The notes beneath the pieces are model-generated. The model searched no databases and had not been told where the DNA came from. It worked only from the letters and a program-made list of their open reading frames with translations. Shown one piece after another: positions 28,512 through 48,725 of a DNA stretch of 64,000 nt; the first letter of the stretch is position 1, and every line of letters starts with the position of its first letter. Location: IMG/VR virus record IMGVR_UViG_3300047480_000504; one strand, given 5' to 3'. This DNA is from a virus (Duplodnaviria; Heunggongvirae; Uroviricota; Caudoviricetes). The translations under genes and the position numbers were made by a program.

Positions 28512-28991
28512 ATGAAAAAGATAACTTTAGCACTAGTTTCAAGCGTGGCATTAAGTGCAGGTGCCGCCGAACTACAACACAATTTTAATAGCCCAGCCTT
28601 TAGCGGTTTGGGCTATTCGTCGCATGTCTTAACTCTAAAGCAGTTAGAAGATCAACAAAAAGACAAAAACAAACAAGCCGCAGAAGCATTAAAAGCGGCC
28701 GCTGAGCGTGAGGCTGCAAATACACCACAGGCACGTTTTAAAGCCAGCATGGAAACTCGCATTTACAGTGAGTTGGCCAAGCGTATTAGCGATAGCTTGT
28801 TTGGTTCAAGTCCAAGCGCACCAACTTGCACACCTACCAGCAGTGGCGGCCCATGTGGTGACATTGACATTGGCGGACAAAACATTACTTGGACGATCCA
28901 AGGTACAAACATAATTGTTAGAATCGCTGAAATTGCAAATCCAAACAATTACACAGAATTAACAATGCCTTATGCGGCATTTAACATCTAA
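28512..28991 (+). CDS. CsgF-like curli assembly protein
   Basis: Signal peptide. The mature N-terminus ELQHNFNSPAFSGLGY matches the CsgF N-terminal FxFxNPxFGG motif. It is positioned directly upstream of the CsgG-like gene. Confidence 0.5.
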   Translation: MKKITLALVSSVALSAGAAELQHNFNSPAFSGLGYSSHVLTLKQLEDQQKDKNKQAAEALKAAAEREAANTPQARFKASMETRIYSELAKRISDSLFGSSPSAPTCTPTSSGGPCGDIDIGGQNITWTIQGTNIIVRIAEIANPNNYTELTMPYAAFNI

Positions 28992-29000
28992 GGAACAACT

Positions 29001-29858
29001 ATGAAAAGAACAACGTTATCCTTAGCAATATCAGCGGTACTTGTGCTGTCGGGTTGTGCTACAGGTTCTGCGATACGAGAAAAAGTCACTGGCAATCAAT
29101 TTGATGCACCAGTGGTTGAACAAAATGTATTTTTAAAAGATCAGTCGGCCAAGTTAATGCCGCCTGCAACTGGCCCAATCCCAGTGGCTGTTTATGGCTT
29201 TCAAGATAAAACTGGTCAGCGTAAAAGCATTCCTAACATTGCCAGCTTATCAAGTGCAGTTACACAAGGTGCAGAAAGCTACTTGATCAAAGCATTACAA
29301 GATGTTGGACAAGCTCGTTGGTTTACAGTATTAGAACGTGTTGGCTTAGAGAACTTAATCAAAGAGCGCCAAATGATTCGTCAAGCTCGCGAACAGTACC
29401 AAGGCAAAGATGCCAAGCCATTAACACCAATGATGTTTGCAGGTATTATTGTTGAAGGCGGTATTGTTGGTTATGACAGCAACACATTAACAGGCGGATC
29501 CGGTGTTCGTTTATTAGGCATTGGGGCAAGCACACAATATCAAAGCGATACTGTTACAGTTAATTTAAGAACAGTAAGCGTTTCTACAGGCGAAGTGCTA
29601 ACAAGCGTTACAGTGACCAAAACTGTATTAAGCTACATGGACAAATTTGGTGTGTTAAAATTTGTTGACAGCGGAACACAAAGTGTTGAAGCTGAAACTG
29701 GCGCTAGTATTAATGAAAGCATCAATAAAGCAGTTAATTTGGCTGTTCAGGCTGCTGTAGTCAATACTATTCACGAAGGTGCTCGTAAGGGGCACTGGAG
29801 TTTTAAGGAAGATAAGCCGGCGGCTGAAGAAGTAAAAGGCGGGGCAACTGCACAATAA
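29001..29858 (+). CDS. csgG: CsgG-family curli secretion channel lipoprotein
   Basis: Lipobox LVLSGC. Colinear with E. coli CsgG across the whole length: VAVYGFQDKTGQ vs VSVYNIQDETGQ, WFTVLERVGLENLIKERQMIRQA vs WFIPLERQGLQNLLNERKIIRAA, IIVEGGIVGYDSN..GGSGVRLLGIGASTQYQ vs IMVEGSIIGYESN..GGVGARYFGIGADTQYQ, LRTVSVSTGEVLTSV..KTVLSY vs LRVVNVSTGEILSSV..KTILSY. Confidence 0.8.
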   Translation: MKRTTLSLAISAVLVLSGCATGSAIREKVTGNQFDAPVVEQNVFLKDQSAKLMPPATGPIPVAVYGFQDKTGQRKSIPNIASLSSAVTQGAESYLIKALQDVGQARWFTVLERVGLENLIKERQMIRQAREQYQGKDAKPLTPMMFAGIIVEGGIVGYDSNTLTGGSGVRLLGIGASTQYQSDTVTVNLRTVSVSTGEVLTSVTVTKTVLSYMDKFGVLKFVDSGTQSVEAETGASINESINKAVNLAVQAAVVNTIHEGARKGHWSFKEDKPAAEEVKGGATAQ

Positions 29859-30005: not shown

Positions 30006-30803
30006 ATGAATAGAAGTATAACAAAAGTTTGTTTGCTTACAGCGGCATTAATGGCTACTGGCACTGCATGGTCCCAAGCCGCAACTGGCCCAAACAAAGT
30101 ATACATTGAACAAATTGGCAATAGCAACACTGTTACCATTCAACAAGTTGGCGGAACAAACAACGTAGGTGGTATTGCGTTGAGTACACCTACTAGTGTT
30201 AGCGCAAGTGGCATCACAACACTAAGTCCTGCGGCACCAAGTTCGTCTAACTATGCTACAATTACAGGTAGTAGCAACACGGTTGCACTTACACAAACTG
30301 GTAACGGCAACAGTGCTCAGTATGACTTGCAAGGCAACAACAACGTTTACACTAGTACAGTAACTGGCCACAGTAACCAAACTAGTCTAACAATTGGCGA
30401 TGTTAACAATGCATCAAACTTGCGTAATACTGTTACTGAAACTATCACAGGTGACAGCAACTTGATTATTCAGCAATTGGTGGGCAGTGATATCACTAGC
30501 ACTACTGCAATCACTGGCAACTCAAACCAAATTACCAAAGAGTTAAAAAGCTCAAACGGTACAAGTGATATTGACATTAGTGGTAACAGCAACGTGTTGA
30601 ACATTCAACAAGTGGATGCGGCTGGTGCTAATGGTCACTACTTAAAGCAAGTTATTGCTGGTAGCTTTAACAGTATCACAACTCAACAACAAGGTACAAA
30701 CGATACCACAGTTGATATCCGCGCAACCGGCAGCAACAACACAATTACTGTAAGAACCAGCAGTAGTAGTATTGTTACTCCAGGTACAGCTATTGCGAGA
30801 TAA
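30006..30803 (+). CDS. curlin-repeat amyloid subunit-like protein
   Basis: Signal peptide followed by at least 7 imperfect repeats of the curlin type (e.g. VYIEQIGNSNTVTIQQVGGTNNV, VALTQTGNGNSAQYDLQGNNNV, LNIQQVDAAGANGHY). Composition is Gln/Asn/Gly/Ser/Thr. Confidence 0.6.
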   Translation: MNRSITKVCLLTAALMATGTAWSQAATGPNKVYIEQIGNSNTVTIQQVGGTNNVGGIALSTPTSVSASGITTLSPAAPSSSNYATITGSSNTVALTQTGNGNSAQYDLQGNNNVYTSTVTGHSNQTSLTIGDVNNASNLRNTVTETITGDSNLIIQQLVGSDITSTTAITGNSNQITKELKSSNGTSDIDISGNSNVLNIQQVDAAGANGHYLKQVIAGSFNSITTQQQGTNDTTVDIRATGSNNTITVRTSSSSIVTPGTAIAR

Positions 30804-30806: not shown

Positions 30807-31913
30807 ATGTGGAAGGCGCTGTTTGCCACACTTCTAATCGCAAGCAATACTACCACTTTTGCCAGTGGTAGTATTGGTGTTGTGTCCGACAATAAAGGAA
30901 CACAATGTGAAGTACAACGTGGCAAAACAAAATCATCAGGCATAAAAGGTGCTAGCATTGAAAGCATGGATACCTACCTCACACAAGCCTGTGCCTCAAA
31001 CATTACATTTAAAGACGACACCAAAGTAAAGGTTACAGAAAACTCCAAGTTGGTAATCGATGACTTTGTGTTTGATCCAAAAAATTCAGATGCTGGCAAA
31101 CTAGCAATGAAAGTGACAATGGGCACTGTTCGTTATGCCAGCGGACAAATTGCTAAAAATAATCCACAACAGGTTGCAGTTAAAACACCAACTGCCAACA
31201 TTGCTGTTCGTGGTACAGACTTTTCAATGACTGTAGATGAAACAGGTCAAAGTTTAATTGTTCTATTGCCAAGTTGCAAAGAAGAAAGCGAACAAAAGAA
31301 ATATGAGTTAGAGGAAAATCGTTGCAGAGTTGGACAGATATCTGTATCTAATAGTGCTGGCACAGTGGTATTAGATAAGGCATTTGAAGCCACATACATT
31401 ACCAGTGCAGACATACGTCCAACTGCACCAACAGTTATTCATACTGTTGAAAGTAAGATCAACAACAATTTAATTATCGTACGTCCGCACGAAGTAGAAC
31501 GTGCTATCCGCGACAACACTGGTCGTACCAAACGCGAAGAATTAGAAGCTGAAATTGAAGCCGAGGCCGCCCGTCGTTTAGCGCAACGTGTTCGAGAGTC
31601 CAACGAAGAACTTGAACGTGCAAGATTATTAGCAATAGCAGAAGCTGCCGGTAAAACTGGTTGTAATGCAAGTACTAATATTTGCGTTACTTGGGCTAAT
31701 CCTGATGCACAGGAAATACAAAGCCGTGGCAAGGGCATAGCATTTAGAAGCAACGAAGATCATTATGCTGAAGTAAAGACACAAGGCTACAGTAGCAATA
31801 CTGCAATTACCATTGTACATAACGATGCCAGTGCCAGTGAACTAATTGGTGCAGGTGGCGGCGGGGGCAATACTGTTTATATCAAGCAGAACCTTGGGGT
31901 GCTACGCAGATGA
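30807..31913 (+). CDS. secreted FecR-domain-like protein with C-terminal curlin-like half-repeat
   Basis: Signal peptide. GTVRYASGQIAK ... ANIAVRGTDFSMTV has a FecR-like fold signature. Coiled-coil segment. The C-terminus is GAGGGGGNTVYIKQNLG. Confidence 0.4.
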   Translation: MWKALFATLLIASNTTTFASGSIGVVSDNKGTQCEVQRGKTKSSGIKGASIESMDTYLTQACASNITFKDDTKVKVTENSKLVIDDFVFDPKNSDAGKLAMKVTMGTVRYASGQIAKNNPQQVAVKTPTANIAVRGTDFSMTVDETGQSLIVLLPSCKEESEQKKYELEENRCRVGQISVSNSAGTVVLDKAFEATYITSADIRPTAPTVIHTVESKINNNLIIVRPHEVERAIRDNTGRTKREELEAEIEAEAARRLAQRVRESNEELERARLLAIAEAAGKTGCNASTNICVTWANPDAQEIQSRGKGIAFRSNEDHYAEVKTQGYSSNTAITIVHNDASASELIGAGGGGGNTVYIKQNLGVLRR

Positions 31914-32086
31914 TGTTTGAAAGCGAATTGCGTCACATGTACCAGGCCTGGCAGCAAGGACAAGACAATTACATACTTGATTCACACCGTTTTGTTGAAT
32001 GGGCAGCGGCATGGAACAAGGCATCAACAGATGTAATGCTAAAAGAGCTACAGCGTTATTCTTGGTTTAAAAGGTTAGAGGCATGA
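31910..32086 (+). CDS. small hypothetical protein (58 aa)
   Basis: ATGA overlaps at both ends (31910-31913 and 32083-32086). Below the ORF-track cut-off. Confidence 0.3.
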   Translation: MMFESELRHMYQAWQQGQDNYILDSHRFVEWAAAWNKASTDVMLKELQRYSWFKRLEA

Positions 32087-32646
32087 AAAAGATATTTTTA
32101 TTATTGTTGTTATTGTGTTTAAATGCGTTTGCCCAAACAAATAACAGCCGAGTTTACATTGACCAAATTGGAAATATGAGTAGCATAGCTGTAAACCAGT
32201 CTGGAACAAAGAACAACTACGCTGAATATATCAGCAGTGGATCATTGAACACTATAGCAATCACTCAAACTAGCAATTCTCTTACTGTGTCAAACTACGC
32301 AGTTGTAACAGTGCCTAGCGACAATAATACAGTAAATGTTATTCAGCAAAGCATTGGCGGAGACAAAGTAATCTTTGCCACCGTTAATAATGGCGGTAAT
32401 AGTTTACTAATTCAACAAAAGGATTCGGGAAGTCACTGGGCTGATATTACCCTTTCTGGCGGTAGTAAAAACGTTGATGTTACTCAGCAAGGCAGTGCCA
32501 GTCACATGGCTCGTATCAATCTAAGTGGTTTGGCACAAGATTTAAGCATAACTCAAAGTGGTAGCACTCAACAATACTATTCAATCACTAGCAATTGTGC
32601 TACAGCAGGTGGTTGTGCTAAGATCACTGTCAATCAAGGACAGTAA
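32083..32646 (+). CDS. curlin-repeat amyloid subunit-like protein (second paralog)
   Basis: Signal peptide MKKIFLLLLLLCLNAFA. Repeats VYIDQIGNMSSIAVNQSGTKNNYAEY, IAITQTSNSLTVSNYA, VNVIQQSIGGDKV, LLIQQKDSGSHWADI, VDVTQQGSASHMARI and LSITQSGSTQQY. Confidence 0.55.
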   Translation: MKKIFLLLLLLCLNAFAQTNNSRVYIDQIGNMSSIAVNQSGTKNNYAEYISSGSLNTIAITQTSNSLTVSNYAVVTVPSDNNTVNVIQQSIGGDKVIFATVNNGGNSLLIQQKDSGSHWADITLSGGSKNVDVTQQGSASHMARINLSGLAQDLSITQSGSTQQYYSITSNCATAGGCAKITVNQGQ

Positions 32647-32673: not shown

Positions 32674-34683
32674 ATGAAATTACGTGACGTCAACCCCCAA
32701 CAACCAGTTTTAGCCGAACAACAGCTAGACGAAATTAACATGAGCCCATCTAGCTTAAAGCAGTTGGCCAGCCAAATCACAGCCCGCGCAGGTATGGAAT
32801 TTGAAATGATCGTTCCAAATGCCGAAAATAACGAAGGCGGCGATATGGAACCTGACTATGATCAAGATCAGCGTACTCGTAGCTTTGGGGACATTGAAGA
32901 ATTCTTTAACGATGGGGATTACAACGGTTCGCGTCAAGTGCGTGAATTAATAGCGGCACTACAAGAACGCTATTACGAGTGGGAAAGCGAAAAGATTGAC
33001 GAAGATTGGGCGTCAGACGGGGAAGACTATTTGCGTGATTGGATCCACAATAACGAATGGATCGAAGAAGATAAAATTCGCGAGCATTTAGAATCACAAG
33101 GTCTTGACGAAGAAGAAATTGATGCGGCCATGTCAGCTGGCAACAGTGCTCCACGTTATAGTAAACTGGATGTACAACAGGCCGCACGCGAATCAGATGA
33201 AAATTACGATCGCTACATGGAAGCTAAAAGTGCCGCAGATGAAGAATTTGATGAATTAGTAACGTCTGAGTGGGAAAGTCGTGGTAGCATGTATGACTCT
33301 GCACTGGACGAGTATCGCGAAGAAAATCAAGGCAATGCTGATGAAGAAGACTTTTTATCGTCTGAGGGTTTACGATACATGAGTGATGTTGCCAATGAGT
33401 TCAGTGGTGATATTACATGGCCCTATTGGACAACACCGTACGGTGGCGAAGTTAGTGCAGAAGAAGTTGCCAAGGACTTTGCTGAAGCAATTGGACGTAG
33501 TGTAAAAGCCAGTGGCTCTTATCACTCAGGTGGCGTACAGCGTCCCAATGCCGAAAACTTGCACTACATTGTAGAACCAGACGGTAGCTTAGAGGCTGAT
33601 GACAGCGGAGATGGAGGCTTGGAGTTTGTTAGCCCGGCACTGCCTATTGCTGAACTATTAAGTGACTTAGACAAAGTTGCCAAGTGGGCCAGCAGTTATG
33701 GCTGCTACACAAACAACTCAACTGGTTTGCACATCAACGTCAGCGTTGAAGGCTGGTCGGGCGATGTTGGCAAGTTAGACTATGTCAAGTTGGCATTGTT
33801 GTTAGGCGACAATTATATCTTAGACAAGTTTGGTCGTGCTGGCAATACCTATTGCAAAAGTGCCATGAACGAAATCAAATCTCGTGTAAGTCAACGTCCC
33901 GAAGATGCAGGTGTGCTACTGCAAAAGATGAAAAGTGGCCTAGACAGTTTGGCCAGTAAAGCAATCCACTCTGGTGTTACAAGCAAATACACAAGTATCA
34001 ATACTAAAAATGGTTACATTGAATTCCGTAGTCCTGGTGGCGACTGGTTAGGAGCGTATGCCGCTGATCCTGGTTCTATTACCAATACCTTGCTACGATT
34101 TGTTGTAGCATTAGATGCCGCAGTGGACCCAGAGAAGTACAAACAAGAGTACTTGAAAAAGTTATACGCAATCTTACAACCCAAGACACACAACGACACC
34201 ATGGCCTACTTTGCACAGTATGCCGCAGGACAAATGCCCAAGGCTGCATTAAAGAGTTTTATTCGTCAAGCACAGTTAGAGCGTCAAGGTAAAAAGCCTG
34301 AGCCCGAGCAAAAAGAACCAAATTACTATATTTCTGATCGCGACACTGGTCAAGTTTATCACAAGTATTATGCAGCCAACAACAACGATGCATTTGAATA
34401 CCTACAGCGTTGGAAAGCACAAAGCTCGGCCCATGCCGGTGGCGATCACTTACAGTATGGCAAGATAATGCCGGGACAAGAACCTGGACAAACTACACCT
34501 AGATCTAGCGGTGGCGAGTGGACTGGCCAGTGGCTAATTAAAGACGGCAGTGATAGAGTGTTACACTCGTTTGGTGGTATAGGAAATAATCAAAGTGATG
34601 CAAATAGATTTGCTATCCAATGGCTAACTAGAAACGGATATGGACACGGTACTGAAGTCAGTGTAGTTCCAGAAATGAGATAA
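32674..34683 (+). CDS. large acidic protein with MKLRDV leader
   Basis: 669 aa with a very acidic N-terminal third. Confidence 0.5.
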   Translation: MKLRDVNPQQPVLAEQQLDEINMSPSSLKQLASQITARAGMEFEMIVPNAENNEGGDMEPDYDQDQRTRSFGDIEEFFNDGDYNGSRQVRELIAALQERYYEWESEKIDEDWASDGEDYLRDWIHNNEWIEEDKIREHLESQGLDEEEIDAAMSAGNSAPRYSKLDVQQAARESDENYDRYMEAKSAADEEFDELVTSEWESRGSMYDSALDEYREENQGNADEEDFLSSEGLRYMSDVANEFSGDITWPYWTTPYGGEVSAEEVAKDFAEAIGRSVKASGSYHSGGVQRPNAENLHYIVEPDGSLEADDSGDGGLEFVSPALPIAELLSDLDKVAKWASSYGCYTNNSTGLHINVSVEGWSGDVGKLDYVKLALLLGDNYILDKFGRAGNTYCKSAMNEIKSRVSQRPEDAGVLLQKMKSGLDSLASKAIHSGVTSKYTSINTKNGYIEFRSPGGDWLGAYAADPGSITNTLLRFVVALDAAVDPEKYKQEYLKKLYAILQPKTHNDTMAYFAQYAAGQMPKAALKSFIRQAQLERQGKKPEPEQKEPNYYISDRDTGQVYHKYYAANNNDAFEYLQRWKAQSSAHAGGDHLQYGKIMPGQEPGQTTPRSSGGEWTGQWLIKDGSDRVLHSFGGIGNNQSDANRFAIQWLTRNGYGHGTEVSVVPEMR

Positions 34684-34684
34684 T

Positions 34685-35530
34685 ATGAAAATACAAGACG
34701 TCACAGAAGGCTACGGCCGATACTATTGTTCCACAGATAAAAAGTGGAAGACTCGTAAAGGTCCCAAGCAGACTAGAAAAGTAGCTGAAGGCTCATTTAA
34801 AGATGCTAGTCCGATGACTAAAGATACAGTAAAAACAGATCGTATCCGCAGCCTTAAGAATCTTATCTCTATTGCCAAAGAACAAGGACGACAACTGCGA
34901 GTTCAAGAACTTGAGTTAGAACTAAAGAAGTTGCAAGGTGTGGCGGAAGAAAAGCAACGTTTAGATGCCAAGTGCTGGGATGGTTATAAAAAAGACGGCA
35001 CTAAGATGAAAGGCGACACAAGAGTCAACAACTGCGTCAAAGAAGACTCGCTAGAAGAGTACGGCGATACAGCGCAAGGTCAAAAGATGTTGACCAAGGT
35101 ACAGAAACGTGCTGTAGATAGAGTAGTATCTAAGAAGGCAGATACAGACCCCAAGTATGCCAAGAAGAATTCAGACTCTGCCAAACGTGCCTGGGAAAGA
35201 ATGGCAGACTTAGAAGAAACTTACGACGGTGACGAGTTTTTTGAAGCCTACGGTGAGTTATGGTATAACGAAGATGAACAGCTAGATGAAGCTGAATACC
35301 AAGGCCGCTCAGTACCACTTGGCAAGCCCATGCAAGGCGATGTTAAAAAGTTCAAAGTGTACGTAAAAGATCCGTCAACTGGTAATGTTAAAAAAGTAAA
35401 CTTTGGCGATCCTGATATGAAGATTCGTAAGAGTAATCCAGCGGCTCGTCGTAGCTTCCGTGCTAGACACAACTGCGACAATCCAGGTCCACGTACAAAG
35501 GCACGTTACTGGTCTTGCCGCAAGTGGTAA
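34685..35530 (+). CDS. basic protein with MKIQDV leader
   Basis: ATAATATG junction. Lys-rich. Confidence 0.45.
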   Translation: MKIQDVTEGYGRYYCSTDKKWKTRKGPKQTRKVAEGSFKDASPMTKDTVKTDRIRSLKNLISIAKEQGRQLRVQELELELKKLQGVAEEKQRLDAKCWDGYKKDGTKMKGDTRVNNCVKEDSLEEYGDTAQGQKMLTKVQKRAVDRVVSKKADTDPKYAKKNSDSAKRAWERMADLEETYDGDEFFEAYGELWYNEDEQLDEAEYQGRSVPLGKPMQGDVKKFKVYVKDPSTGNVKKVNFGDPDMKIRKSNPAARRSFRARHNCDNPGPRTKARYWSCRKW

Positions 35531-35531
35531 T

Positions 35532-35948
35532 ATGCTGATACGTGAACTGTTTGAACCAAACAAACCGTGGCAATGGAGCTTCCGTGGCAGCGAGGAAGCA
35601 GTTGCAGTGTTTCATGTTGGCGAAATTCCTTACATGTTTCATGCTTACGGTACTGATGGCGTATGGGAAGTTGAATTTAAACGCCACGGAAGTAAACTTG
35701 ATCGTGCCAATAAGTTTGGCTTGACTGGTACTGGCAACTCAGCCGAAGTCATGAGCACAGTAGTTGACATCATGCGAGAGTTTTTAACCAAGTACAAAGA
35801 TCAAATTGAAACACTAACGTTCTCAGCCAAGGAAGACTCGCGACAAGGGTTGTATGCACGAATGGTCAAACGACTATTACCCTCATGGACCATGCATCAA
35901 TCTGGTGAAGAATTTGTATTGGCAGCTCCAAACGATCCTGTCCAATAA
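35532..35948 (+). CDS. hypothetical protein with MLIREL leader
   Basis: ATG at 35532, two nt after the upstream TAA. In frame with the listed 35460 ORF. Confidence 0.4.
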   Translation: MLIRELFEPNKPWQWSFRGSEEAVAVFHVGEIPYMFHAYGTDGVWEVEFKRHGSKLDRANKFGLTGTGNSAEVMSTVVDIMREFLTKYKDQIETLTFSAKEDSRQGLYARMVKRLLPSWTMHQSGEEFVLAAPNDPVQ

Positions 35949-36591
35949 CGTCATCTTCGAAGACTGGACCTGGTCTTGCAGTCGTAAGTAACACACATTA
36001 ATCAAGCGCAACAAAAGGTTAGCAGGCCGGTCAATATTCTGCTGGGTAAGCATCTAAGTGTGTGCCGATGCCCAATTCTGTGAGTGCGCCACGGACTTGT
36101 ATTCACTACCCGTCTTCGTACGGATGCCTTAAAACGGTGCCCCTTTGGGCTTCACGTTTGAATACCAGTATACAGGTTGAGTGCAGTGTAAACTGACTTA
36201 GATCCAATACGTTCATAGCAACACATGACACCGAGGTTGCTTTAAAAATCGTAGCAGGTAGGGTAAGGTACATAGCCCAGAAACGTGGAATCCCAAACAC
36301 CTGTTGTCTCAGTGTGGCGATACTACTCAGCAAACAACCACTCACGACGCCCGTTATCAGGGTGTCGTATGAGCTCACAATCTAGCAAAACTTTCATCTT
36401 GTAATCAAATTTTTCGTGTTAACCAAAAACACAATAAGAATAATTTTAACCCGCAAAAATATGGATGCACCGTAAAAATTATATGCCGCAAAATTATGGT
36501 TAACACGAAGACTATGACTTCGTCTATGGTCCTTAATGAATAGCTGTGATTGGACCGGGTCCTTTGTTTGACTTGACTTTCAGACAAAAGT
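35949..36591. ncRNA. candidate non-coding / structured RNA region (unassigned)
   Basis: About 640 bp with no credible ORF on either strand, in an otherwise gap-free genome. Locally GC-richer with multiple short stems. No tRNA T-loop motif was found. Confidence 0.2.
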
Positions 36592-38643
36592 ATGCTAAAT
36601 TATAGTATGAAAAACTTTATTCCTGGACCATGGAGTATTGCCTGGGTAGCTGTTACGGCAGTTGTACTTGTTGCATTAAAAATCTCCAACCCCAAGCCTG
36701 TTGAAAGCATTCAACTCAAAGGCTTTGACACATTACTTGCTACAGATACACCAGTTGATTCTGATCGTGTTGTTATCGTTGACATTGGCGAAGCCAGTAT
36801 CGAACGCTTGGGCCAATGGCCTTGGCCGCGCAAGGATCTAGCACGAGCCATTGATCGCATTCAAGAACTAGGTGCATCAGCAGTTGTTGTTCCTGTTATC
36901 ATGAGTGAAGCAGATCGACTAGGCGGTGACAAGGACTTAGTTAATACACTGGCACATACAAACAGTGTTATTGCACAAGCACCTACTACACAAAATAAAA
37001 AGCCTGACGCTGTTCGTCGTGGTGTTGCTGTTATTGGTGGTGATCCGCTAGAGTGGACTTACACATGGCCCGGCGCACTGAGTCCTTACAAGCCCCTGGC
37101 TGATGCAGCCGCTGGTGTTGGTACCAGTGTTGTTGCTCCTGAAGTAGACGGTGTTGTTAGACGCATGCCACTTATCGTAGGCGTAGGCGATCAAATATAT
37201 CCCAGCTTGCCAATCGAAGCACTTCGTGTTGCTACAGGACAAACCAGCTATCAAGTCAAAATGAGTTCAGCTGGTATTGAAAAAGTTCGTATTGCTGGAC
37301 AACCTGTTGTCACAACAGACGAACGAGCTAGAGTTTGGCTACGATGGAACAAGAACTTCACACGCTATGAATTATCTGAGCTGTCTAAGAAAAAAGTAGA
37401 TCTTCGAGGCAAAGTGGTAGTGCTGGGTCTAGCAGTAGAAGGCCTAGGTGGTATTATTGCTACACCACGTAGTGAAGCCTGGGCACACGATATTCAAGCA
37501 CAAACTGTGCAGACTTTGCTTGACGGTGATAGTCCTGTACGTCCTGCATTTGCCAATACTATTGAATTGATAACAATTGTGTTGATAGCGTTTCTACTAA
37601 TTTTCGCAATGCCTAGATTGCCGTTTTGGGCAGTAGGCACAGCATTACTTGCAACAGTGGGTGGTGTAGTGTGGGGTAGCTTCTTTGCTTGGACTAATTA
37701 CCTACAGCTATGGGACATTTACTTTTTAACTATCAGTGCAGTTGTATTATATGGTCATGCCTTGTTTGCTAGATTTGTAATTGAGTTCAAACAAAAGCAA
37801 CAAATCAAGAAACAGTTTGGTACGTACCTAAGTCCAGCACTGGTTGCCAAGCTACAAAAGAATCCCGAGATGTTGCAGTTGGGCGGTGACGAACGTGAAT
37901 TGAGTATTATGTTTACAGACGTTCGTGGCTTTACTACGATCTCTGAACACTATGGTCGAGATGTACAAGGACTTACTAAAATTATGAACCGTTATATGAC
38001 TGCAATGACTAAAAAGATCATTGACAATAACGGCACGTTAGACAAGTACATTGGCGATGCCCAAATGGCATTTTGGAACGCACCCGTTGACGAAGAACGT
38101 CATGCACACATGGCTGTTAAAACAGCATTAGAAATGATGGAGAGTTTGGATGAGTTTAATCGAGAAGTTACGGCAGAAGGTATCCCGCCTTTTGGTATGG
38201 GTCTTGGGATTAATAGTGCAGTTGTTGTGGTCGGTAACATGGGATCTGATCAGCGTTTTGACTATACTTGCCTGGGCGATGGCGTCAATCTTGCGTCCCG
38301 ACTTGAGGGACAAAGTAAGCCTTATGGCGTACGAATTATATTGGGACAGCGAACTGCTGAACTTGTTAAGGATGAATACCCGACGATAGAATTGGATTGT
38401 ATTGCAGTTAAAGGCAAGAATGTAGGTGTTAAAATCTACACGCTAGGCGCAACCAATACAACACTACACGACACATATCTAACTGCATACTATCGCGGTG
38501 ACTGGGACCGTGCCAAGAAACAATGCGAAAAGCTGATCAAGTTAGATAACGAACTACGACAGTACTATGAAAACATGTTAGAGCGCATGAATGAAGGCTT
38601 GCCTGCTAATTGGGATGGCACATACCGTGCCACAAGTAAATAA
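36592..38643 (+). CDS. CHASE2 sensor-domain class III adenylate/guanylate cyclase
   Basis: N-terminal TM helix, a CHASE2 region (GQWPWPRKDLARAIDRIQELGASAV) and three TM helices. Cyclase core motifs: MFTDVRGFTTISE, YIGDAQMAFWNAP and LGLGINSAVVVVGNMGS. Confidence 0.8.
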   Translation: MLNYSMKNFIPGPWSIAWVAVTAVVLVALKISNPKPVESIQLKGFDTLLATDTPVDSDRVVIVDIGEASIERLGQWPWPRKDLARAIDRIQELGASAVVVPVIMSEADRLGGDKDLVNTLAHTNSVIAQAPTTQNKKPDAVRRGVAVIGGDPLEWTYTWPGALSPYKPLADAAAGVGTSVVAPEVDGVVRRMPLIVGVGDQIYPSLPIEALRVATGQTSYQVKMSSAGIEKVRIAGQPVVTTDERARVWLRWNKNFTRYELSELSKKKVDLRGKVVVLGLAVEGLGGIIATPRSEAWAHDIQAQTVQTLLDGDSPVRPAFANTIELITIVLIAFLLIFAMPRLPFWAVGTALLATVGGVVWGSFFAWTNYLQLWDIYFLTISAVVLYGHALFARFVIEFKQKQQIKKQFGTYLSPALVAKLQKNPEMLQLGGDERELSIMFTDVRGFTTISEHYGRDVQGLTKIMNRYMTAMTKKIIDNNGTLDKYIGDAQMAFWNAPVDEERHAHMAVKTALEMMESLDEFNREVTAEGIPPFGMGLGINSAVVVVGNMGSDQRFDYTCLGDGVNLASRLEGQSKPYGVRIILGQRTAELVKDEYPTIELDCIAVKGKNVGVKIYTLGATNTTLHDTYLTAYYRGDWDRAKKQCEKLIKLDNELRQYYENMLERMNEGLPANWDGTYRATSK

Positions 38644-38646: not shown

Positions 38647-39357
38647 ATGACACAACAATTATACTTTGATTTTTCTCAACCAGCACTTGGGCATCCAGAA
38701 TTTTTCTACCCGCTTGATCTAAGACTAGATCCTGAGGAAAAAGAAAACTTTATTAAAACAGCACTAGTGCCGCACAGAGACAAAATAGAAGGGTCAGGCT
38801 ATGGATTATCAAACGTAGGCAATGCTGACGCAAGTTTTCCTAAAACCATTGCCGCTACCAACGAGTTTTTAAAGCCGTTAGGAGTTGTGTGCCGTAAGCT
38901 AACATTATTTCTAAGTGCCAAAAGTCAAACAAGTTGGGTTGTACATTGTGACGGTGTACGGGCGCCAACAGGTCCAGCAATGCTCGAGGCAAGATTAAGT
39001 TATTATGAAATTGCCGAGGAGCCTGGGGCAATACGTTGGTGGAAGCAGTTGCCAAATAAAGGCATTGAAGTTTTTCCAGCCAACAAAGAATTAGGTACTC
39101 AGGAGAGAATTAGTTGCTTTGCAGATTGCGCTGAACAACTCAAAGACGATAAGATTACCTGGGATGATATTCCTCCCCCAGATTTTAGTACAGTGTCGTC
39201 TGCACCAAGTGCTATATTAAGAACTAATAGATTTCATCATGTTATACAAGGTCCTGGATTACGTGTTACAGTTAGTTGTCAATTGGTATTTCCCGACGGT
39301 AGTCCAGAAGGTGTGTGGGAACACATCGAACACAATATTCACAAATTAGGAATTTAA
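38647..39357 (+). CDS. hypothetical protein
   Basis: Starts 4 nt after the cyclase stop, so it is probably co-transcribed. Confidence 0.45.
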   Translation: MTQQLYFDFSQPALGHPEFFYPLDLRLDPEEKENFIKTALVPHRDKIEGSGYGLSNVGNADASFPKTIAATNEFLKPLGVVCRKLTLFLSAKSQTSWVVHCDGVRAPTGPAMLEARLSYYEIAEEPGAIRWWKQLPNKGIEVFPANKELGTQERISCFADCAEQLKDDKITWDDIPPPDFSTVSSAPSAILRTNRFHHVIQGPGLRVTVSCQLVFPDGSPEGVWEHIEHNIHKLGI

Positions 39358-39358
39358 G

Positions 39359-39742
39359 TTGTTATATTTTGCATATGGTATGAATACCAACAATAATGCT
39401 ATGTCCAAGACTAGCAAGCGTTTAGGCCCAGCAGTGCTATTAGATTACAAGTGGGAAATGCTACAGTTTGCCAATGTATTTGAAATGAGGGGTGTCACTT
39501 CAATTGGTATTCTATGGGAAATTGATGAAAATGAATTAAAAGAGTTGGATATGCGCGAAGGTTATCCAACATTTTATAATCGAGTTATTGCAGAAGTAGA
39601 ACACAACGGAGAGCTGGTTCAAGCCTGGGTATATTATATGACCCCAGAATATAGAACAAAACTAGCCAATGAAAAACCGAGTCAACAATATTATGACTCG
39701 GTTGTTGAGGGCTTCGCGCAAGACGGAATTGTTATTTCTTAA
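39359..39742 (+). CDS. gamma-glutamylcyclotransferase (AIG2/GGCT-like)
   Basis: N-terminal LYFAYGMNTN (the YFAYGSNM motif) plus a catalytic Glu context EGYP. TTG start. Confidence 0.55.
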   Translation: MLYFAYGMNTNNNAMSKTSKRLGPAVLLDYKWEMLQFANVFEMRGVTSIGILWEIDENELKELDMREGYPTFYNRVIAEVEHNGELVQAWVYYMTPEYRTKLANEKPSQQYYDSVVEGFAQDGIVIS

Positions 39743-40061
39743 CTGGTTTGTCAATGTTGACAGCATCGCGGAACTTTTCATCAGCTTCGCGATCTACTTT
39801 TTGCTGTTCAACCACACGCTCACCGTCAATAATCTTGCCACGCAAGTGTAGTACAACATCTACCTTTTGATTCAAGCGAATCAAATCGTTGTCAAGCATA
39901 CGCACACGATCGATCAAGGCAATAAGTGTATTACTGGCAGCGCCTAGTACTGGCTTGATATCCTGTGTTGCCCATTGCCATACGTAGAAAATCAGGTATC
40001 CCATGCCACCTGCGGCCACAATCGGAAAGCCGTATTTGTTGATTAGTGTTGCAATATCCAT
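39732..40061 (-). CDS. membrane protein, paralog A (N-terminal TM plus coiled coil)
   Basis: FPIVAAGGMGYLIFYVW TM segment, then IDRVRMLDNDLIRLNQKVDVVL. Paralogous to 40261..40542. Confidence 0.45.
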   Translation of the reverse strand: MDIATLINKYGFPIVAAGGMGYLIFYVWQWATQDIKPVLGAASNTLIALIDRVRMLDNDLIRLNQKVDVVLHLRGKIIDGERVVEQQKVDREADEKFRDAVNIDKPVKK

Positions 40062-40261
40062 TATTCTTTCCCTGCCAATTCTGCGCCACCGTCACGTACA
40101 AATGCTGTAAGTGGATCCACTTTGACCAACATTGCACGTCCATTGATGTTAGTGACCCTAAAATAATCACCAGCTTTCCAACCTAAACGATCGATGTTTA
40201 GCTCTTCGTCTAAAATAATTCTATCTGGGTGAAGATCCCAGTTGTAGTCAAAATGCAACAT
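40061..40261 (-). CDS. small hypothetical protein
   Basis: ATGA overlaps on both sides within the minus-strand trio. Confidence 0.35.
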   Translation of the reverse strand: MLHFDYNWDLHPDRIILDEELNIDRLGWKAGDYFRVTNINGRAMLVKVDPLTAFVRDGGAELAGKE

Positions 40262-40542
40262 TAATCGCGCCTCGCATCATTTTTACCGTCTGCTCGAGCA
40301 ATACGTGATGTATCTGGCTTTAAGCCTAATGCATTTGATACAACAGCATCAATGCGTATAACATCGTGATTCATTGTTTTAACACGGTTATCAAGAGCTT
40401 CAATGATACCTTTAAGGCCCGACACACTTGAAGTAACGCCTGCTAAAATGAACTTTAGTGTCAAAAACACAAAGTACCCTGCGGCAATAGCGGCTGCAAT
40501 TGGGAAGCCTACTTCTGCTACTAATTTGAAAAACTCACCCAT
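40261..40542 (-). CDS. membrane protein, paralog B
   Basis: FPIAAAIAAGYFVFLTL TM segment, then LDNRVKTMNHDVIRIDAVV. RBS AGGATTGCCAAGATG on the minus strand. Confidence 0.45.
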   Translation of the reverse strand: MGEFFKLVAEVGFPIAAAIAAGYFVFLTLKFILAGVTSSVSGLKGIIEALDNRVKTMNHDVIRIDAVVSNALGLKPDTSRIARADGKNDARRD

Positions 40543-40654: not shown

Positions 40655-41530
40655 ATGAAACTACGTGAATTAATTGTAATGGAGGATGGGGAAGCCGCGG
40701 TGGCAACCACGTCTAGCGACATCGCTACAGTGGCTTATCCTCTATTTGTACGTGGTAAAAGCAAAAAAGAAAAACGCAAGAACGCTAGAGCCGCAGTAGG
40801 CCAAAAGTACGTACCGGGTCCTAAAGGAATTGGTCAAGGTGTATTTGAAAACGTAGAAGAAGCACACGTATTAAATCACGATAACGTTATCTATAGACTA
40901 GACCGTGACAACCCCATGAGCGATACTGAAGTACTAGTACTAGGTGGTGCTGGTCGTTATAGCTTAAAAGCACTCCGTGATAAAGCACGTAGAGAAGCGG
41001 CGGCATTGGCACAAGATCTCAGTATTGAACATGGCGGTGCATTTAGACGCAGTGCTGAAAACATTAAGCAATTAACAAACACAATCAATACTATTGTTGC
41101 GGCCTACAATGAGCTAGCAAGATTAAGACGCAAGGGTGGTCGTGGTAGCCGTGGTATTACGGATGAAGATGCTAACTTTATTCGCGAATGTATTCGTGTA
41201 GTAGAGCAAGCCACACAGAATTATAGATTAATGGAAGGTCTTACGCAGGAGCCCGATCCTGCAGGATATGCCAAAGACACACTAACAACACCCAAGTATA
41301 CCATTGTAGTAAATACACCTGGTGACTTAGATTGGTACAAGGTTGGTACGTATTGGAACAATAAAGTCATTGATCCCCATGAATTTGGGCAAGACGACAG
41401 CGACACTGTGTTAGTAGCACAAGGCGTAGAAGAATATAAAGAAATGTTGGCCAAAATTAAACAAATGGGCCTGACATACAAAACAATTGGCGGCACGACT
41501 GATCAGCCAGAAATTCACGATAAACCATAA
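40655..41530 (+). CDS. hypothetical protein with MKLRELI leader
   Basis: N-terminal leader family member. Confidence 0.45.
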   Translation: MKLRELIVMEDGEAAVATTSSDIATVAYPLFVRGKSKKEKRKNARAAVGQKYVPGPKGIGQGVFENVEEAHVLNHDNVIYRLDRDNPMSDTEVLVLGGAGRYSLKALRDKARREAAALAQDLSIEHGGAFRRSAENIKQLTNTINTIVAAYNELARLRRKGGRGSRGITDEDANFIRECIRVVEQATQNYRLMEGLTQEPDPAGYAKDTLTTPKYTIVVNTPGDLDWYKVGTYWNNKVIDPHEFGQDDSDTVLVAQGVEEYKEMLAKIKQMGLTYKTIGGTTDQPEIHDKP

Positions 41531-41541
41531 AAGGGACAAAA

Positions 41542-44415
41542 ATGATTCGCATTAGACTAATCAACGAAGGCCGTGTAGTTAAACAAATTACCAGCCGCTT
41601 ACACGAAGGTGTTGTACTTGAGCAAATTAAAAAGTACAAGGATCCGTACGACACTGTTCAAATCGTCGAAGGCGAATTGAGTGAAGGTGCAAAAGATATG
41701 TTGCATCACGTTGCTAAAAAGATTGTACCAGCCGCGCTGGCCGCAGGTATGGCAATGAGTGGCGCAAGTAATGCACAAGCACAAGGCGGGGCAAATCCAC
41801 ATTATCCAGGTTTGAATCATTCAGTTGGCCAACAGTTGTCTGACATTTTTAGCCCTAACTATAAAGAATTAAGACGCCAGCGTGACCACCAACGCTCCAC
41901 TGAACGTCAAGTATGGGACGCAGAACAAAACGAAATTCGTAAGCAACGAGTAAATGCCGCTCGAGCTGCCGCAGGTGGCGGCAACCAACCGGTAATTTAC
42001 GATCAAAGTCGATTAAGCCAAGATGGTAAGTCTTATATCATTTACGGCATTGACAACAAAGTACGCCGTATCCCAGTTGCAGGTACAGAATATATGCACG
42101 GTGACAGCCAACGCTTGCCACACTATATTACAAGTGGTGGCAATGTGTTGTATGTTCGTCACCCACATGCAGTGACCGAAAGTGTAGCGGAGGGCACAGA
42201 TCCAAATAAACAATCACACGCAGAAGCATTCAAAAGCGAAACTGACACTATGAAGCCAGATACTAAAAAGTATGTGGGTAGAAAAGGTGGCAAGGAAGTT
42301 CATGCTAAAAAAGATGCACAGGGCAATGTCAAGTTCTATCACAGAGATGGTATCAAAGGTCCATTAAAAGCAGTAAATGAAGGTGTAGCTGAAGGCTATA
42401 CAGTAACTCGTGGCATTGATCGTGAACGTTATCAAGAGCGTCCAGGCTTAGAAGGCCCATTCTCTACTCGCAGTGGTAAGGTTGTGTATTACGATCCCCA
42501 AGAAGGCAAGTATTACGATCCCGAAACTGACTTTTACATTGGCCACGAAGATTACGCCAAGATGGACGAGGATGCACCAGCTCTAGTAAAAGGTGCCGCA
42601 GGACTGGCATTAGGCGGCTTAGCTGCCGCAGGTGCTCCTGCTATTGTTGCTATCTTGGGCCCATTGTTAGGTATCCCAATGGCTGCATACGGTGCTTATA
42701 GTGCCGCTAAGTTAGGCATGAAGGGTGTAGAAAAGCTATGGGACATGGCTTCAGATAAATTAGGCGGCGATGATAAAGTTGCACAATACACTAATGCCAA
42801 GTTGGCCACACTGCCACCAGAGCAGGCTAAAGCAGGTGCGGCAGTAGTTAAAAAGATTGGCGAAAGCAAGCAAGGCGTAGTCGAAAGCGATCCAAATGCT
42901 ACAGTAGGTACTATTCCTTCAACAGGTACAAGTGGTGGTACAGGTCGCACACAATTTGCCCCAACAGGTAAAACAACTAACGCTAAGTTTAACAAGAACG
43001 GCCAAATTGAATTAGACACAGAACAAGAAGACGACGGCAGTGTCAACTTAGATCCAGATGCAGTAAAACAATTACAACAAGCTGGCGTAAAAATTAAAGA
43101 GACTGATGATGACGGCAGAGATAAATTCTATTATCAACGCAACAACATCTGGAGAGTCATGGACGGTGACGATCTAGTTGACGAATACAAAGCCCAACGT
43201 AACGAAATTGTTGGCGCTAAAAAGTTGCTGGCTCGATATGACGATGAAGGTTATGATGTAGACCGTGTAATTAGCCCAATGGGATTTGTTACATACTTGT
43301 ATGGCAAACCAGTGGATGAAGCTACAATAAGCGAAAGTGACAGTCCAGTGGCTAGTGCTATTGCTCGTCGTATTATGAGTCAGCGTCTTGACCTGCTACA
43401 AAAATATGGTCCCGTAAAAGTAACAGCCGCCATTGACGAAGTTGCTGACTTTGTAGGTGATGTAGAAGAAATTGGTAGTAGCGATGTAAGCGGTTGGGTC
43501 AAGCACGTTGAACAAATGTTACGTGACAATCCAACAGCGGCATTTGGCGAAGCGTCTGACACATTAGAAGGTATCCTAAGCAAGTACAGTGCTGACTATG
43601 CCAAGTTCAAAGCAGGTGGCGACATTGATGAAAACCAAGACTTCTTTGACGCATTGTACGCATACTATTCTGAATCGGGTGAAATGCCATACGGCGTACA
43701 AAAAGCCCGCGATGGCGATCCGTATGAGTGGATTACACAACGTTTAGATCACGAATCCGGTGTATCACCAGTTATTGAAGCAGATGGTGACGAAGCAAGT
43801 GCAGATCAAAACATTATTATGCAAATCCGCAAAGCAAGTGATTACGAAAAGCCAACTAAGATCGAACTAGCCGACGGTACTGAAAGCGTTATTGCTCCAA
43901 ACATTGCCAAGCAATTATTGGCCAAGTTTGATAAAATGAAGCCGGAGAGCAAGGAGCTATTGCAAAATACACTAAACACAGAAGAAGGCTTTAAAGAAAT
44001 CATTGCTTATTTTGGTGGTGGTGTACGTGAACAAGCGGCTGCTCGTGTTGGCAATATCATGCAAAGTGCAATGGCCGAAGCAGGTTATGGACGCTATGAT
44101 CGTCGCGATGCTTACCAACGTGATTATGATAGCAGTGTAGCAGGGATGGGCAAGCGACAATCGTATGCTTATCAAATGGACGGTGGCGCCAATGATGAAG
44201 GTTGGGACAAGCCAGAACAAGAACGAGCCTACTATAAAAAGTCACCGGTCCCAGCTAAAAAAGGCTATTACTTCTACAATGTACCAGCTGATCAAACTGC
44301 TAAAGCAGAAGAACTTGGCTTGTTCAAAACAAAAAGCGGCAAATGGTACAGTCCATTTGAAAACACACGTGCCAACATGTTCTTTGGCGCAGGCAGATAT
44401 TGGGAGCCAAAATAA
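41542..44415 (+). CDS. very large (957 aa) protein with central Gly/Ala-rich hydrophobic segment
   Basis: RBS AAAGGGACAAAAATG. Central segment GAAGLALGGLAAAGAPAIVAILGPLLGIPMAAYGAY looks membrane-active. Confidence 0.55.
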   Translation: MIRIRLINEGRVVKQITSRLHEGVVLEQIKKYKDPYDTVQIVEGELSEGAKDMLHHVAKKIVPAALAAGMAMSGASNAQAQGGANPHYPGLNHSVGQQLSDIFSPNYKELRRQRDHQRSTERQVWDAEQNEIRKQRVNAARAAAGGGNQPVIYDQSRLSQDGKSYIIYGIDNKVRRIPVAGTEYMHGDSQRLPHYITSGGNVLYVRHPHAVTESVAEGTDPNKQSHAEAFKSETDTMKPDTKKYVGRKGGKEVHAKKDAQGNVKFYHRDGIKGPLKAVNEGVAEGYTVTRGIDRERYQERPGLEGPFSTRSGKVVYYDPQEGKYYDPETDFYIGHEDYAKMDEDAPALVKGAAGLALGGLAAAGAPAIVAILGPLLGIPMAAYGAYSAAKLGMKGVEKLWDMASDKLGGDDKVAQYTNAKLATLPPEQAKAGAAVVKKIGESKQGVVESDPNATVGTIPSTGTSGGTGRTQFAPTGKTTNAKFNKNGQIELDTEQEDDGSVNLDPDAVKQLQQAGVKIKETDDDGRDKFYYQRNNIWRVMDGDDLVDEYKAQRNEIVGAKKLLARYDDEGYDVDRVISPMGFVTYLYGKPVDEATISESDSPVASAIARRIMSQRLDLLQKYGPVKVTAAIDEVADFVGDVEEIGSSDVSGWVKHVEQMLRDNPTAAFGEASDTLEGILSKYSADYAKFKAGGDIDENQDFFDALYAYYSESGEMPYGVQKARDGDPYEWITQRLDHESGVSPVIEADGDEASADQNIIMQIRKASDYEKPTKIELADGTESVIAPNIAKQLLAKFDKMKPESKELLQNTLNTEEGFKEIIAYFGGGVREQAAARVGNIMQSAMAEAGYGRYDRRDAYQRDYDSSVAGMGKRQSYAYQMDGGANDEGWDKPEQERAYYKKSPVPAKKGYYFYNVPADQTAKAEELGLFKTKSGKWYSPFENTRANMFFGAGRYWEPK

Positions 44416-45269
44416 TGAAATTCACAGACTTAGGCGATAAAGGACCAGAATTCAAACTGCAAAGTGTAGCAGAAGGCGGATTTAAAAATAAATTTGCAGA
44501 ATTCTCTGGCTATGGCAACTACATGCGAAGCCGTGCTCCTAATGTATTCAAGCATTTTGGTCTACAGGTTATTAGCAAAGAATATACCGAAGACGAGGAC
44601 ATCCAAACCTATACAGTACAAGGCGACAGAGACTCGATTGACCAGGCCCGCGCTTATTTGGAGCGCAGTGATCAATTTGGCGGGGTTATCTACAAGCAAG
44701 GTGTAGGCGAAGGCTTTAAGAACACATACAACGTAGGCGATCGCATAGATGGACCACTTGGTACTGGCACTATTGTTGCTGTATCTCCAAACATCAATAT
44801 GGATGGCAAAATCAAAGTCAAACTAGACGATCCAGCTCGTGCAGGTGAAGATGGCAAAGAACGTGACACATTTGTTCTTAATACAACACAAGTAAAGCAT
44901 ATTGCCGACGAAGCCAGTTTAGCACAAATGCGTGACTACTTTAATCAAGCTGACACTGATTCAGTACAAGTAGATCGCAATTATGATGCGCCAGGCCGGA
45001 AACAGAATCCCGCAGGTGTGCCACCAGAGATTCAAGCCTTGGTGAATAAAATGTACCACGCTGGTAAAATCAGCCCGCAAGAGTTTGAAGTACTAAGAAA
45101 GTTTCAGCAGAAGACTAAAATCAATGTAGGTATTCGCGAAGCTGATAAAAATCCTTATGCAATTGGCATGGCACAAGCAATGAAAAGCACCGGTGACCGA
45201 CCACCACTAAAGAAAAGCACTATTAACAAGGCGCACGAAATCGCCCGTGCTATTAAAAAAGATCAATAA
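44415..45269 (+). CDS. hypothetical protein
   Basis: TAATG overlap with the upstream gene. Confidence 0.45.
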   Translation: MKFTDLGDKGPEFKLQSVAEGGFKNKFAEFSGYGNYMRSRAPNVFKHFGLQVISKEYTEDEDIQTYTVQGDRDSIDQARAYLERSDQFGGVIYKQGVGEGFKNTYNVGDRIDGPLGTGTIVAVSPNINMDGKIKVKLDDPARAGEDGKERDTFVLNTTQVKHIADEASLAQMRDYFNQADTDSVQVDRNYDAPGRKQNPAGVPPEIQALVNKMYHAGKISPQEFEVLRKFQQKTKINVGIREADKNPYAIGMAQAMKSTGDRPPLKKSTINKAHEIARAIKKDQ

Positions 45270-45281
45270 CAGGAGATTGAT

Positions 45282-45917: not shown

Positions 45918-45983
45918 ATAAACTCGACACGGCCCTAATCGCTTGCTTATTATGAGAAGTGCATTGGGGTTTTTCTTGACCAT

Positions 45984-48723: not shown

Positions 48724-48725
48724 TT

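Follow-up and report, generated by a model that had tools for sequence, protein, structure and literature searches.

We find that the gene at positions 36592..38643 (+ strand) of a viral DNA stretch of 64,000 nucleotides (Caudoviricetes; IMG/VR record IMGVR_UViG_3300047480_000504; the whole stretch is called the window here) encodes a CHASE2-sensor class IIIb adenylate cyclase, as judged by Pfam, PDB alignments and conservation. This enzyme is likely to give the output signal of an envelope cassette conserved in viruses, in which a signal would pass from a FecR-domain protein to CHASE2 and from there to cyclic AMP (cAMP). Our starting points are the domain architecture, an intact and invariant active site, purifying selection, export signals and gene linkage, all of which were directly observed. 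The cyclase itself is an ordinary member of a described family, and our finding for this gene is largely confirmatory. What is new is the presence of the curli/FecR/cyclase cassette in another viral lineage, a jumbo phage, where it stands in disrupted form.

The open reading frame (ORF) starts with ATG and codes for 683 aa, and these coordinates and this length agree with the original prediction, which had been made from the letters alone. A second ATG at 36607 would give a protein of 678 aa; it is preferred by public gene callers and by most homologues, and may be the true start. Searching Pfam, we found CHASE2 (PF05226) at residues 24-336 (E=3.7e-42; 145.1 bits against a cut-off of 26.3) and Guanylate_cyc (PF00211) at residues 436-617 (E=3.2e-19; 69.7 bits against a cut-off of 21.9). 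Both E-values are well outside the chance range. Hydropathy analysis gave one transmembrane (TM) helix in front of the sensor (TM1, ~14-32) and three behind it (TM2-4, ~321-341, 345-367 and 376-397), with the Lys-rich stretch EFKQKQQIKK directly after TM4. From this stretch and the TM layout, CHASE2 is predicted to be periplasmic and the cyclase domain cytoplasmic. The protein would consequently run from TM1 through a periplasmic CHASE2 region (~33-320), the TM2-4 block (~321-397), a linker (401-435) and the catalytic domain (436-618) to a C-terminal extension (619-683), the linker and the extension both being conserved. The motifs of the class III core stand at residues 441-448 (FTDVRGFT), 488-495 (GDAQMAFW) and 537-552 (GLGINSAVVVVGNMGS). 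Hence Pfam, hydropathy and motifs together bear out the claim of a CHASE2 domain between TM helices joined to a class III cyclase core.

We aligned 193 relatives to examine the catalytic positions. The metal-binding residues D443 (in FTDVRGFT) and D489 (in KYIGD) were present in 193/193, the substrate-specificity residues K485 and T559 were invariant, and the transition-state residues of the GVNLASRLE motif, N566 and R570, were found in 192/193 and 193/193, respectively. One Asn-to-Asp change was the sole deviation at the six positions. The set includes 120 sequences from an unbiased protein search, while a further 72 ORFs came from fetched loci and were motif-selected, which biases them towards intact sites. 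Mutation of the catalytic Asp, Asn or Arg had been named beforehand as fatal to the idea of a phage-borne, sensor-coupled class III cyclase; on alignment these residues are intact, and the idea stands. The mean identity of the relatives to the window cyclase was 0.89 in the linker and 0.86 in the catalytic domain, in comparison with 0.62 in CHASE2 and 0.45 in the TM block. These values indicate strong purifying selection on catalysis and on signal transmission through the linker and catalytic domain.

A catalytically dead or decaying gene, either a pseudo-enzyme scaffold or the remnant of a cassette broken up by an island of amidoligase-type genes, is an extremely improbable alternative. The cassette is indeed interrupted in the window, and some viral cassettes do without the cyclase (PMC9599517). 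However, the frame is full-length, the catalytic residues are invariant, the catalytic domain is strongly conserved (86% mean identity), and a 100% identical copy of the cyclase was recovered from independent samples.

The best PDB sequence matches of the cyclase were Synechocystis Cya2 and its engineered adenylate-cyclase form (6FHT, 2W01), Pseudomonas aeruginosa CyaB (3R5G) and Spirulina CyaC (1WC1), with E-values down to 1e-35. The catalytic domain of CyaB, a class IIIb enzyme, aligned at E=1.5e-29 and has the same Lys, Thr, Asn and Arg and both metal-binding Asp residues. K485 was aligned with Lys and T559 with Thr of CyaB, whereas the guanylate cyclase Cya2 (2W01) has Glu and Gly there. 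The K/T pair is a mark of class IIIb adenylate cyclases, in which Thr replaces Asp at the second specificity position. The invariant K485/T559 pair points to ATP as the substrate and to cAMP as the predicted product. The likeness to CyaB ends at the membrane, since the membrane sensor of CyaB is MASE2, which differs from CHASE2; CyaB is also without a FecR or curli context.

The original prediction had left the product as cAMP or cGMP; the specificity residues favour the ATP/cAMP part of it and disfavour GTP/cGMP. A guanylate cyclase, or a dual enzyme making both cAMP and cGMP, appears very unlikely. Pfam does not tell adenylate and guanylate cyclases apart, and the best PDB match derives from Cya2, a guanylate cyclase; the pair K/T, though, is that of the proven adenylate cyclase CyaB and of the E-to-K engineered form of Cya2 (6FHT), and not the Glu and Gly of Cya2 itself. 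A further point for a broader product is that the Sinorhizobium meliloti enzymes are annotated as adenylate/guanylate cyclases and that the regulator Clr binds both nucleotides, according to PMC10127613. On the whole, the gene probably encodes an intact, active, membrane-bound sensor adenylate cyclase, which probably acts as a homodimer.

The cyclase does not stand alone, as the original prediction had treated it: a CsgF-CsgG-curlin-FecR cassette upstream of it had been missed. In the window, this cassette begins on the + strand with a CsgF-like secreted protein (28512..28991; Pfam CsgF E=5.7e-07; signal peptide) and a CsgG-like outer-membrane lipoprotein channel (29001..29858; Pfam CsgG E=2.8e-53; lipobox L-S-G-C), the latter scoring 189 bits against the NCBIfam CsgG model, under the equivalog cut-off. 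A first secreted curlin-repeat-like protein follows (30006..30803, +). Its match to Curlin_rpt is weak (E=0.0022, under the Pfam cut-off); it has a signal peptide followed by VYIEQIGNSN, and its position in the cassette is conserved. Next come an exported FecR-domain protein of 368 aa (30807..31913, +; Pfam FecR at residues 56-150; N-terminal signal-like sequence) and a second secreted curlin-repeat protein (32083..32646, +; Pfam Curlin_rpt E=1.7e-4), in which a signal peptide is followed by VYIDQIGNMS. Export signals were seen on all cassette proteins.

We then counted how often these genes accompany the cyclase in viruses. The sample comprised 82 loci, namely 80 IMG/VR loci (of at least 597 matching contigs) and two cultured phages, and each denominator is the number of loci with enough flank (for CsgG, loci with ≥6 kb upstream). 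Upstream of the cyclase and on the same strand, FecR was present in 48/50 loci, CsgG in 45/45 and CsgF in 39/40, showing that the linkage of the cyclase to the cassette is near-absolute in viruses. In the cultured phages HTVC008M and Melnitz the order is CsgF, CsgG, curlin-repeat, FecR-domain, curlin-repeat and, last, cyclase; the 332-kb contig LR797824.1 has the same order, and in most relatives the second curlin gene is the immediate upstream neighbour of the cyclase. In the window, the cyclase is adjacent neither to FecR nor to the second curlin gene, from which 3.9 kb separate it. In sister loci of 76% identity (L009, L011-L013), the second curlin gene abuts the cyclase, and the separation in the window is therefore a recent insertion/indel.

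This distance, together with an intact enzyme and a conserved upstream region of its own, would also suit a stand-alone auxiliary gene, one that floods the cell with cAMP and reprograms CRP-dependent host physiology while CHASE2 senses an environmental cue directly; cAMP-CRP control of metabolism counts for it as well. We consider such a gene unlikely. The linkage to FecR, CsgG and CsgF is near-absolute across >45 viral loci, which belong to three or more viral lineages (PMC9599517); bacteria pair FecR with CHASE2 repeatedly, and do so with different output domains (PMC5192318); and the separation is a recent indel that the 76%-identity sisters do not share. The pairing across phyla and output domains and the near-absolute viral linkage both argue that FecR and the CHASE2 cyclase form a functional unit.

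Performing megablast against deposited phages, we obtained no match for the cyclase gene, so that a protein-level search was needed. By tblastn, full-length homologues were found among deposited phages in Pelagibacter phage HTVC008M and in four isolates of Methylophilales phage Melnitz, cultured T4-like Kyanoviridae in which the gene is already annotated as adenylate/guanylate cyclase. The HTVC008M (AGE60353) and Melnitz (gp104, QZI94833.1) proteins are 40-41% identical to the window cyclase over 88-95% of the length, and both have CHASE2 and a class III cyclase. The cyclase is a full-length match to phrog_35576 (E=4e-232), and its family occurs on at least 597 IMG/VR viral contigs and in thousands of metagenomic proteins. 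With these homologues, and with the module already described (PMC9599517), the cyclase can no longer be called unusual cargo for a T4-like phage.

The curli cluster was reported in pelagimyophages by Zaragoza-Solas et al. 2020 (PMC7029224). A role of CsgGF as a lysis-timing pore was put forward by Buchholz et al. 2022 (PMC9004378), where the cyclase goes unmentioned. Wittmers et al. 2022 (PMC9599517) described, for pelagiphages of the podo- and myo- types, a viral type VIII secretion system (T8SS) cluster that includes FecR and an adenylate cyclase; they inferred an alphaproteobacterial origin for this module and found it expressed in metatranscriptomes. The window shares with the HTVC008M and Melnitz module the same partners in the same order and the same two small membrane-protein genes. 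It differs in belonging to another genome lineage, in the 3.9-kb amidoligase island and RNA-like element placed before the cyclase, and in the small membrane genes, which are inverted and moved downstream. In the literature on the viral module, the sensor was not identified as CHASE2, and the small genes appear to have been called histidine kinases.

These two small genes lie on the - strand and belong to phrog_18771. One encodes a membrane-anchored helical protein of 93 aa (40261..40542), which is always cassette-linked; the other is its paralogue of 109 aa (39732..40061), assigned by paralogy and PHROG. Such genes were present in 24/24 viral loci with enough flank, either just before CsgF or, in 17/24 loci as in the window, after the cyclase on the opposite strand. 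Among cultured phages, phrog_18771 small genes were found only in the six records that carry the cassette (Melnitz gp97/gp98; HTVC008M 6900-7462). They are the best-conserved and most constantly linked genes of the cassette, with 64% identity to Melnitz gp97 in comparison with 41% for the cyclase. Judging by their position in Melnitz and HTVC008M, they would be the one or two small genes in front of CsgF that PMC9599517 calls 'HK'. We reject histidine kinases, as the proteins have 93 and 109 aa and no His is conserved between the paralogues. Only G12, A18, L50, R53 and D60 are invariant, and a profile search against PDB returned insignificant coiled-coil matches only.

The window also encodes a LuxR/GerE-type regulator of 229 aa (15190-15879, +), whose second-best NCBIfam match is CsgD, the curli master regulator (E=2.7e-13 over residues 97-220, with a score far under the cut-off). 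Pelagiphage cassettes are reportedly without CsgD.

The cellular relatives of the cyclase are 33-38% identical over the full length (residues ~20-683, C-terminal extension included) and almost all alphaproteobacterial. Using hidden Markov models (HMMs) built from the viral cassette genes, the sensitivity of which may be limited, we found a FecR-domain ORF near the CHASE2 cyclase in 30/80 cellular loci, mostly abutting it upstream. With the same models, CsgF, CsgG and the small membrane genes were found in none of the 78 genuinely bacterial loci, and curlin-repeat proteins are missing from all of these as well. The two closest matches from metagenome-assembled genomes (MAGs) are set apart here. 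One, labelled 'Bacteroidetes MAG' (L083, RGCF01000015.1), has the whole cassette from the small membrane genes through the cyclase; in the other, a 3.3-kb 'Saprospiraceae MAG' contig from ALOHA (L115), the gene just before the cyclase is curlin-like. Both are probably phage contigs mis-binned into MAGs.

In several Bradyrhizobium loci (L092, 3299-7852; L113, 539-7762; and similar ones), giant ORFs abut the CHASE2 cyclases upstream, their sizes of 1,400-2,400 aa being stop-to-stop estimates. The one that was scanned, in L092, has FecR together with cadherin-like, Big_9 and RTX repeats. These giant ORFs suggest that the FecR/CHASE2 sensor pair is commonly partnered by secreted or surface repeat proteins. 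On an Ensifer plasmid, a FecR protein beside a peptide-export system is paired with a CHASE2 cyclase. On pSymB of S. meliloti, a 1219-aa FecR+TPR ORF ends in a stop that overlaps the start of a CHASE2 cyclase. We infer that this ORF is NsrA, given its size and layout and the fit of the NsrA barrel at aa 600-1200 (PMC7529298).

The S. meliloti system is among the closest known ones. Its cyclases CyaD1, CyaD2 and CyaK raise cAMP on an extracellular protein signal perceived via the outer-membrane protein NsrA, and the cAMP acts on the CRP-like regulator Clr (PMC7529298, PMC13001267). CyaD1 without CHASE2 makes cAMP constitutively, and a FecR-domain gene lies beside cyaD1 (PMC5498481). The three enzymes have the same CHASE2 + class III architecture and the C-terminal extension, the catalytic domain of the pSymB enzyme is 46.8% identical to that of the window cyclase, and a FecR-domain envelope protein is encoded beside the cyclase, as in the phage. 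In contrast to S. meliloti, the phage adds CsgG/CsgF and curlin-repeat proteins. The pairing is also found farther afield. In Campylobacterota, a CHASE2 cyclase is clustered with a FecR outer-membrane protein (PMC9239204), and in Burkholderia and Pseudomonas, a LysM-FecR protein (COG4254) goes with a CHASE2 histidine kinase (PMC5192318). In both cases, a periplasmic FecR-domain protein is encoded beside a CHASE2 transmembrane transducer, as in the phage. The output in Burkholderia is, however, a histidine kinase, and curli genes are found in neither cluster.

The original prediction had also offered a decoy or sponge against cyclic-nucleotide-based defences. In this reading, the cyclase would be an anti-defence or defence enzyme; its cyclic nucleotide, possibly a pyrimidine one as made by PycC of the Pycsar system, would serve as a decoy, set off immunity based on cyclic nucleotides too early, or signal exclusion, whether against such immunity or against competing phages. 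We hold it to be highly improbable. PADLOC PycC models do match the catalytic domain (best PDLC00734, E=3e-25, 87 bits), but the match is limited to the generic class III fold at residues 432-609, and the purine/ATP pair K485/T559 is invariant. There was no Pycsar effector (PycTIR, PycTM) or other PADLOC match in the neighbours tested; the genes nearby are those of the oxygenase, GGACT, amidoligase and curli/FecR proteins. The steady partners are envelope and secretion genes, not immunity genes. Among cellular proteins, the cyclase is most closely related to CHASE2 cyclases of housekeeping type, and those of S. meliloti produce cAMP (PMC13001267).

Returning to the envelope cassette, we propose the following model. 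During infection, the phage would install in the host envelope the two small membrane proteins, the CsgF/CsgG channel, the two curlin-repeat proteins, the exported FecR protein and the cyclase. The cyclase would be an inner-membrane receptor-type class IIIb enzyme, in which periplasmic CHASE2 controls a cytoplasmic ATP-to-cAMP domain. The FecR-domain protein, as the predicted periplasmic partner of CHASE2, would relay to it the state of the periplasm or surface, possibly of the CsgG/F/curlin apparatus; this relay would free the cyclase activity, and cAMP would go up. The FecR-CHASE2 contact is predicted from pairing and linkage, and a downstream target of cAMP and a benefit to the phage are likewise presumed. 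The AF2 (AlphaFold2) model of the FecR protein has a beta domain, a long helix and a small Cys-containing C-terminal domain, and no beta-barrel; its predicted local distance difference test (pLDDT) score is 67, and it is confident for the N-terminal beta domain only. Going by this model, an outer-membrane component would have to come from elsewhere, most plausibly from CsgG/F. The core of FecR and CHASE2 cyclase would have been inherited from Alphaproteobacteria as an ancestral envelope-to-cAMP pair, which phages appear to have combined with the CsgG/F/curlin secretion apparatus. Under this model, the cassette would be an envelope sensing and signalling device, beyond a pore or fibre factory. 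The CHASE2 sensor, its constant FecR neighbour and the homology to bacterial outside-in cAMP pathways make it a testable model for the "phage curli operon".

Several observations weigh against it. The 3.9-kb gap and the RNA-like element in it make co-transcription of the cyclase with FecR unlikely in the window. According to PMC9599517, viral cassettes often but not always include the cyclase, which means that the T8SS/FecR part can work without it. FecR was detected beside only the 30 of 80 bacterial relatives mentioned above. In comparison with NsrA, the phage FecR protein has only 368 aa and is without the TPR region and the beta-barrel (AF2, pLDDT 67). No cyclic-nucleotide-binding receptor or phosphodiesterase was seen among the ~50 window ORFs scanned, neither a Clr/CRP-like receptor as in S. 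meliloti nor a counterpart of the dedicated phosphodiesterase of the Campylobacterota CHASE2-cyclase/FecR-outer-membrane-protein/TPR cluster; the window makes up roughly a fifth of a genome that is probably 330 kb long, and a cAMP receptor could also come from the host. Finally, our literature search found no experimental test of any phage member of the cyclase family.

What the cassette might sense is a matter of speculation. The signal for S. meliloti NsrA and CyaK is free ribosomal protein uL2, which crude bacterial and yeast extracts contain; in effect, the pair detects lysed cells. By analogy, the surface-exposed CsgG/F/curlin apparatus and the FecR protein could serve the infected cell as an outside-in sensor of lysis debris or superinfection around it, an idea that we regard as rather improbable. 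If it were true, the CHASE2 cyclase would turn this signal into cAMP, by which the time of lysis or exclusion would be adjusted, in the manner of lysis inhibition or arbitrium-style population sensing. A separate point is that a conserved ~400-nt element 5′ of the cyclase gene may be a new structured RNA.

The genome carrying the cassette is T4-like in the loosest sense only, and here the original prediction is not supported. The window has essentially only the cassette in common with Melnitz. A family-B DNA polymerase fragment (62926-63999, +), which runs off the window end, is ~49% identical to jumbo phage polymerases; the nearest are those of Sinorhizobium Phosso, Pseudomonas PA5oct, Agrobacterium Atu_ph07 and Vibrio 2.275.O (~49%), as compared with 35% for Melnitz. 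By its nearness to PA5oct, Atu_ph07 and Phosso, the genome belongs with the jumbo myophages rather than with Kyanoviridae. Close relatives of the cyclase are found on contigs of 285-332 kb, e.g. LR797824.1, and the GC content is ~42%. The genome thus looks like that of a PA5oct/Atu_ph07-type jumbo phage and, by polymerase and gene sharing, the cassette carrier is not a pelagiphage (SAR11/OM43 myo- or podophage). The spread of the cassette would accordingly extend to another viral lineage.

The cyclase is surrounded by an island that is no part of the cassette module. Its upstream part (32674..35948, +) consists of an Amidoligase_2 gene (32674-34683), an ORF of 281 aa (34685-35530) and a DUF6934 ORF ending at 35948. 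The part downstream of the cyclase (38647..39742, +) has a divergent 236-aa 2-oxoglutarate (2OG)/Fe(II)-oxygenase-like ORF (38647-39357) and a GGACT gamma-glutamyl cyclotransferase (39359-39742). Amidoligase and GGACT co-occur, and only in the nearest relatives (L003-L008, L010); they are not in the 76%-identity sisters. Two loci (L178 and L184) have the amidoligase, the RNA-like element and the oxygenase in this order without a cyclase, and GGACT comes next in L184, the longer contig. The island is a contiguous unit in L184 and split around the cyclase in the window. As it exists without the cyclase, the window cyclase lies inside, or is flanked by, an unrelated island. With its amidoligase, 281-aa, DUF6934, oxygenase and GGACT genes, it is a mobile island that looks like a system for modifying peptides or metabolites.

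A small ORF had been placed 4 nt downstream of the cyclase. An ORF does follow, starting at 38647, 3 nt after the cyclase stop codon, but with 236 aa it is not small. It had no match in Pfam, PHROG, PDB sequences, PADLOC or NCBIfam, and its 83 homologues are all within the closest sub-clade. The AF2 model (pLDDT 94) had structural matches to 2OG/Fe(II) oxygenases only, and H100-x-D102...H197 is invariant. We reject it as a cAMP effector on account of the oxygenase-like fold, the invariant H-x-D...H and its restriction to the closest clade; it is not a conserved partner of the cyclase.

The RNA-like element (~35975-36400, +) lies inside the 643-nt gap 35949-36591, directly 5′ of the cyclase. 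We collected 13 distinct copies, which are 77-94% identical and contain invariant blocks of 20-40 nt. RNAalifold folds them into a consensus of 99 pairs, with 98% of cells paired; compensatory double changes occur at six pairs, and the clearest covariation is in a GNRA-loop hairpin. In shuffle controls, six such compensated pairs were reached in 4/500 and the number of compensated cells in 0/500, and slid controls gave 0-2 pairs. The gap is not a missed gene, since its substitutions do not follow a codon period and its copies have stops and frameshifts at scattered places. The element had no match in Rfam, where permissive E-values gave noise only, and a promoter and terminator scan around the cyclase gene gave no enrichment over shuffles. 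A cyclase-specific leader is also rejected, because L178 and L184 have the element in front of the oxygenase and are without a cyclase; from this, the element belongs to the amidoligase island. Its conservation and covariation suggest that it is probably a new, unclassified structured phage RNA.

No tRNA, tmRNA or Rfam family was found in the window. Regions 1-27000 and 41500-56000 are dense in accessory and metabolic genes, nearly all on the + strand. These genes encode a subtilase (S8), nitroreductase, thioesterase, UvdE endonuclease, GNAT, GIY-YIG, TauD dioxygenase and papain-like peptidase (C1). Further accessory genes encode an SPFH/Band 7 protein, two GH19 chitinase-like lysozymes, a radical-SAM-like protein, UDP-glucose dehydrogenase, nitronate monooxygenase and a cytidylyltransferase/mannose-6-phosphate isomerase.

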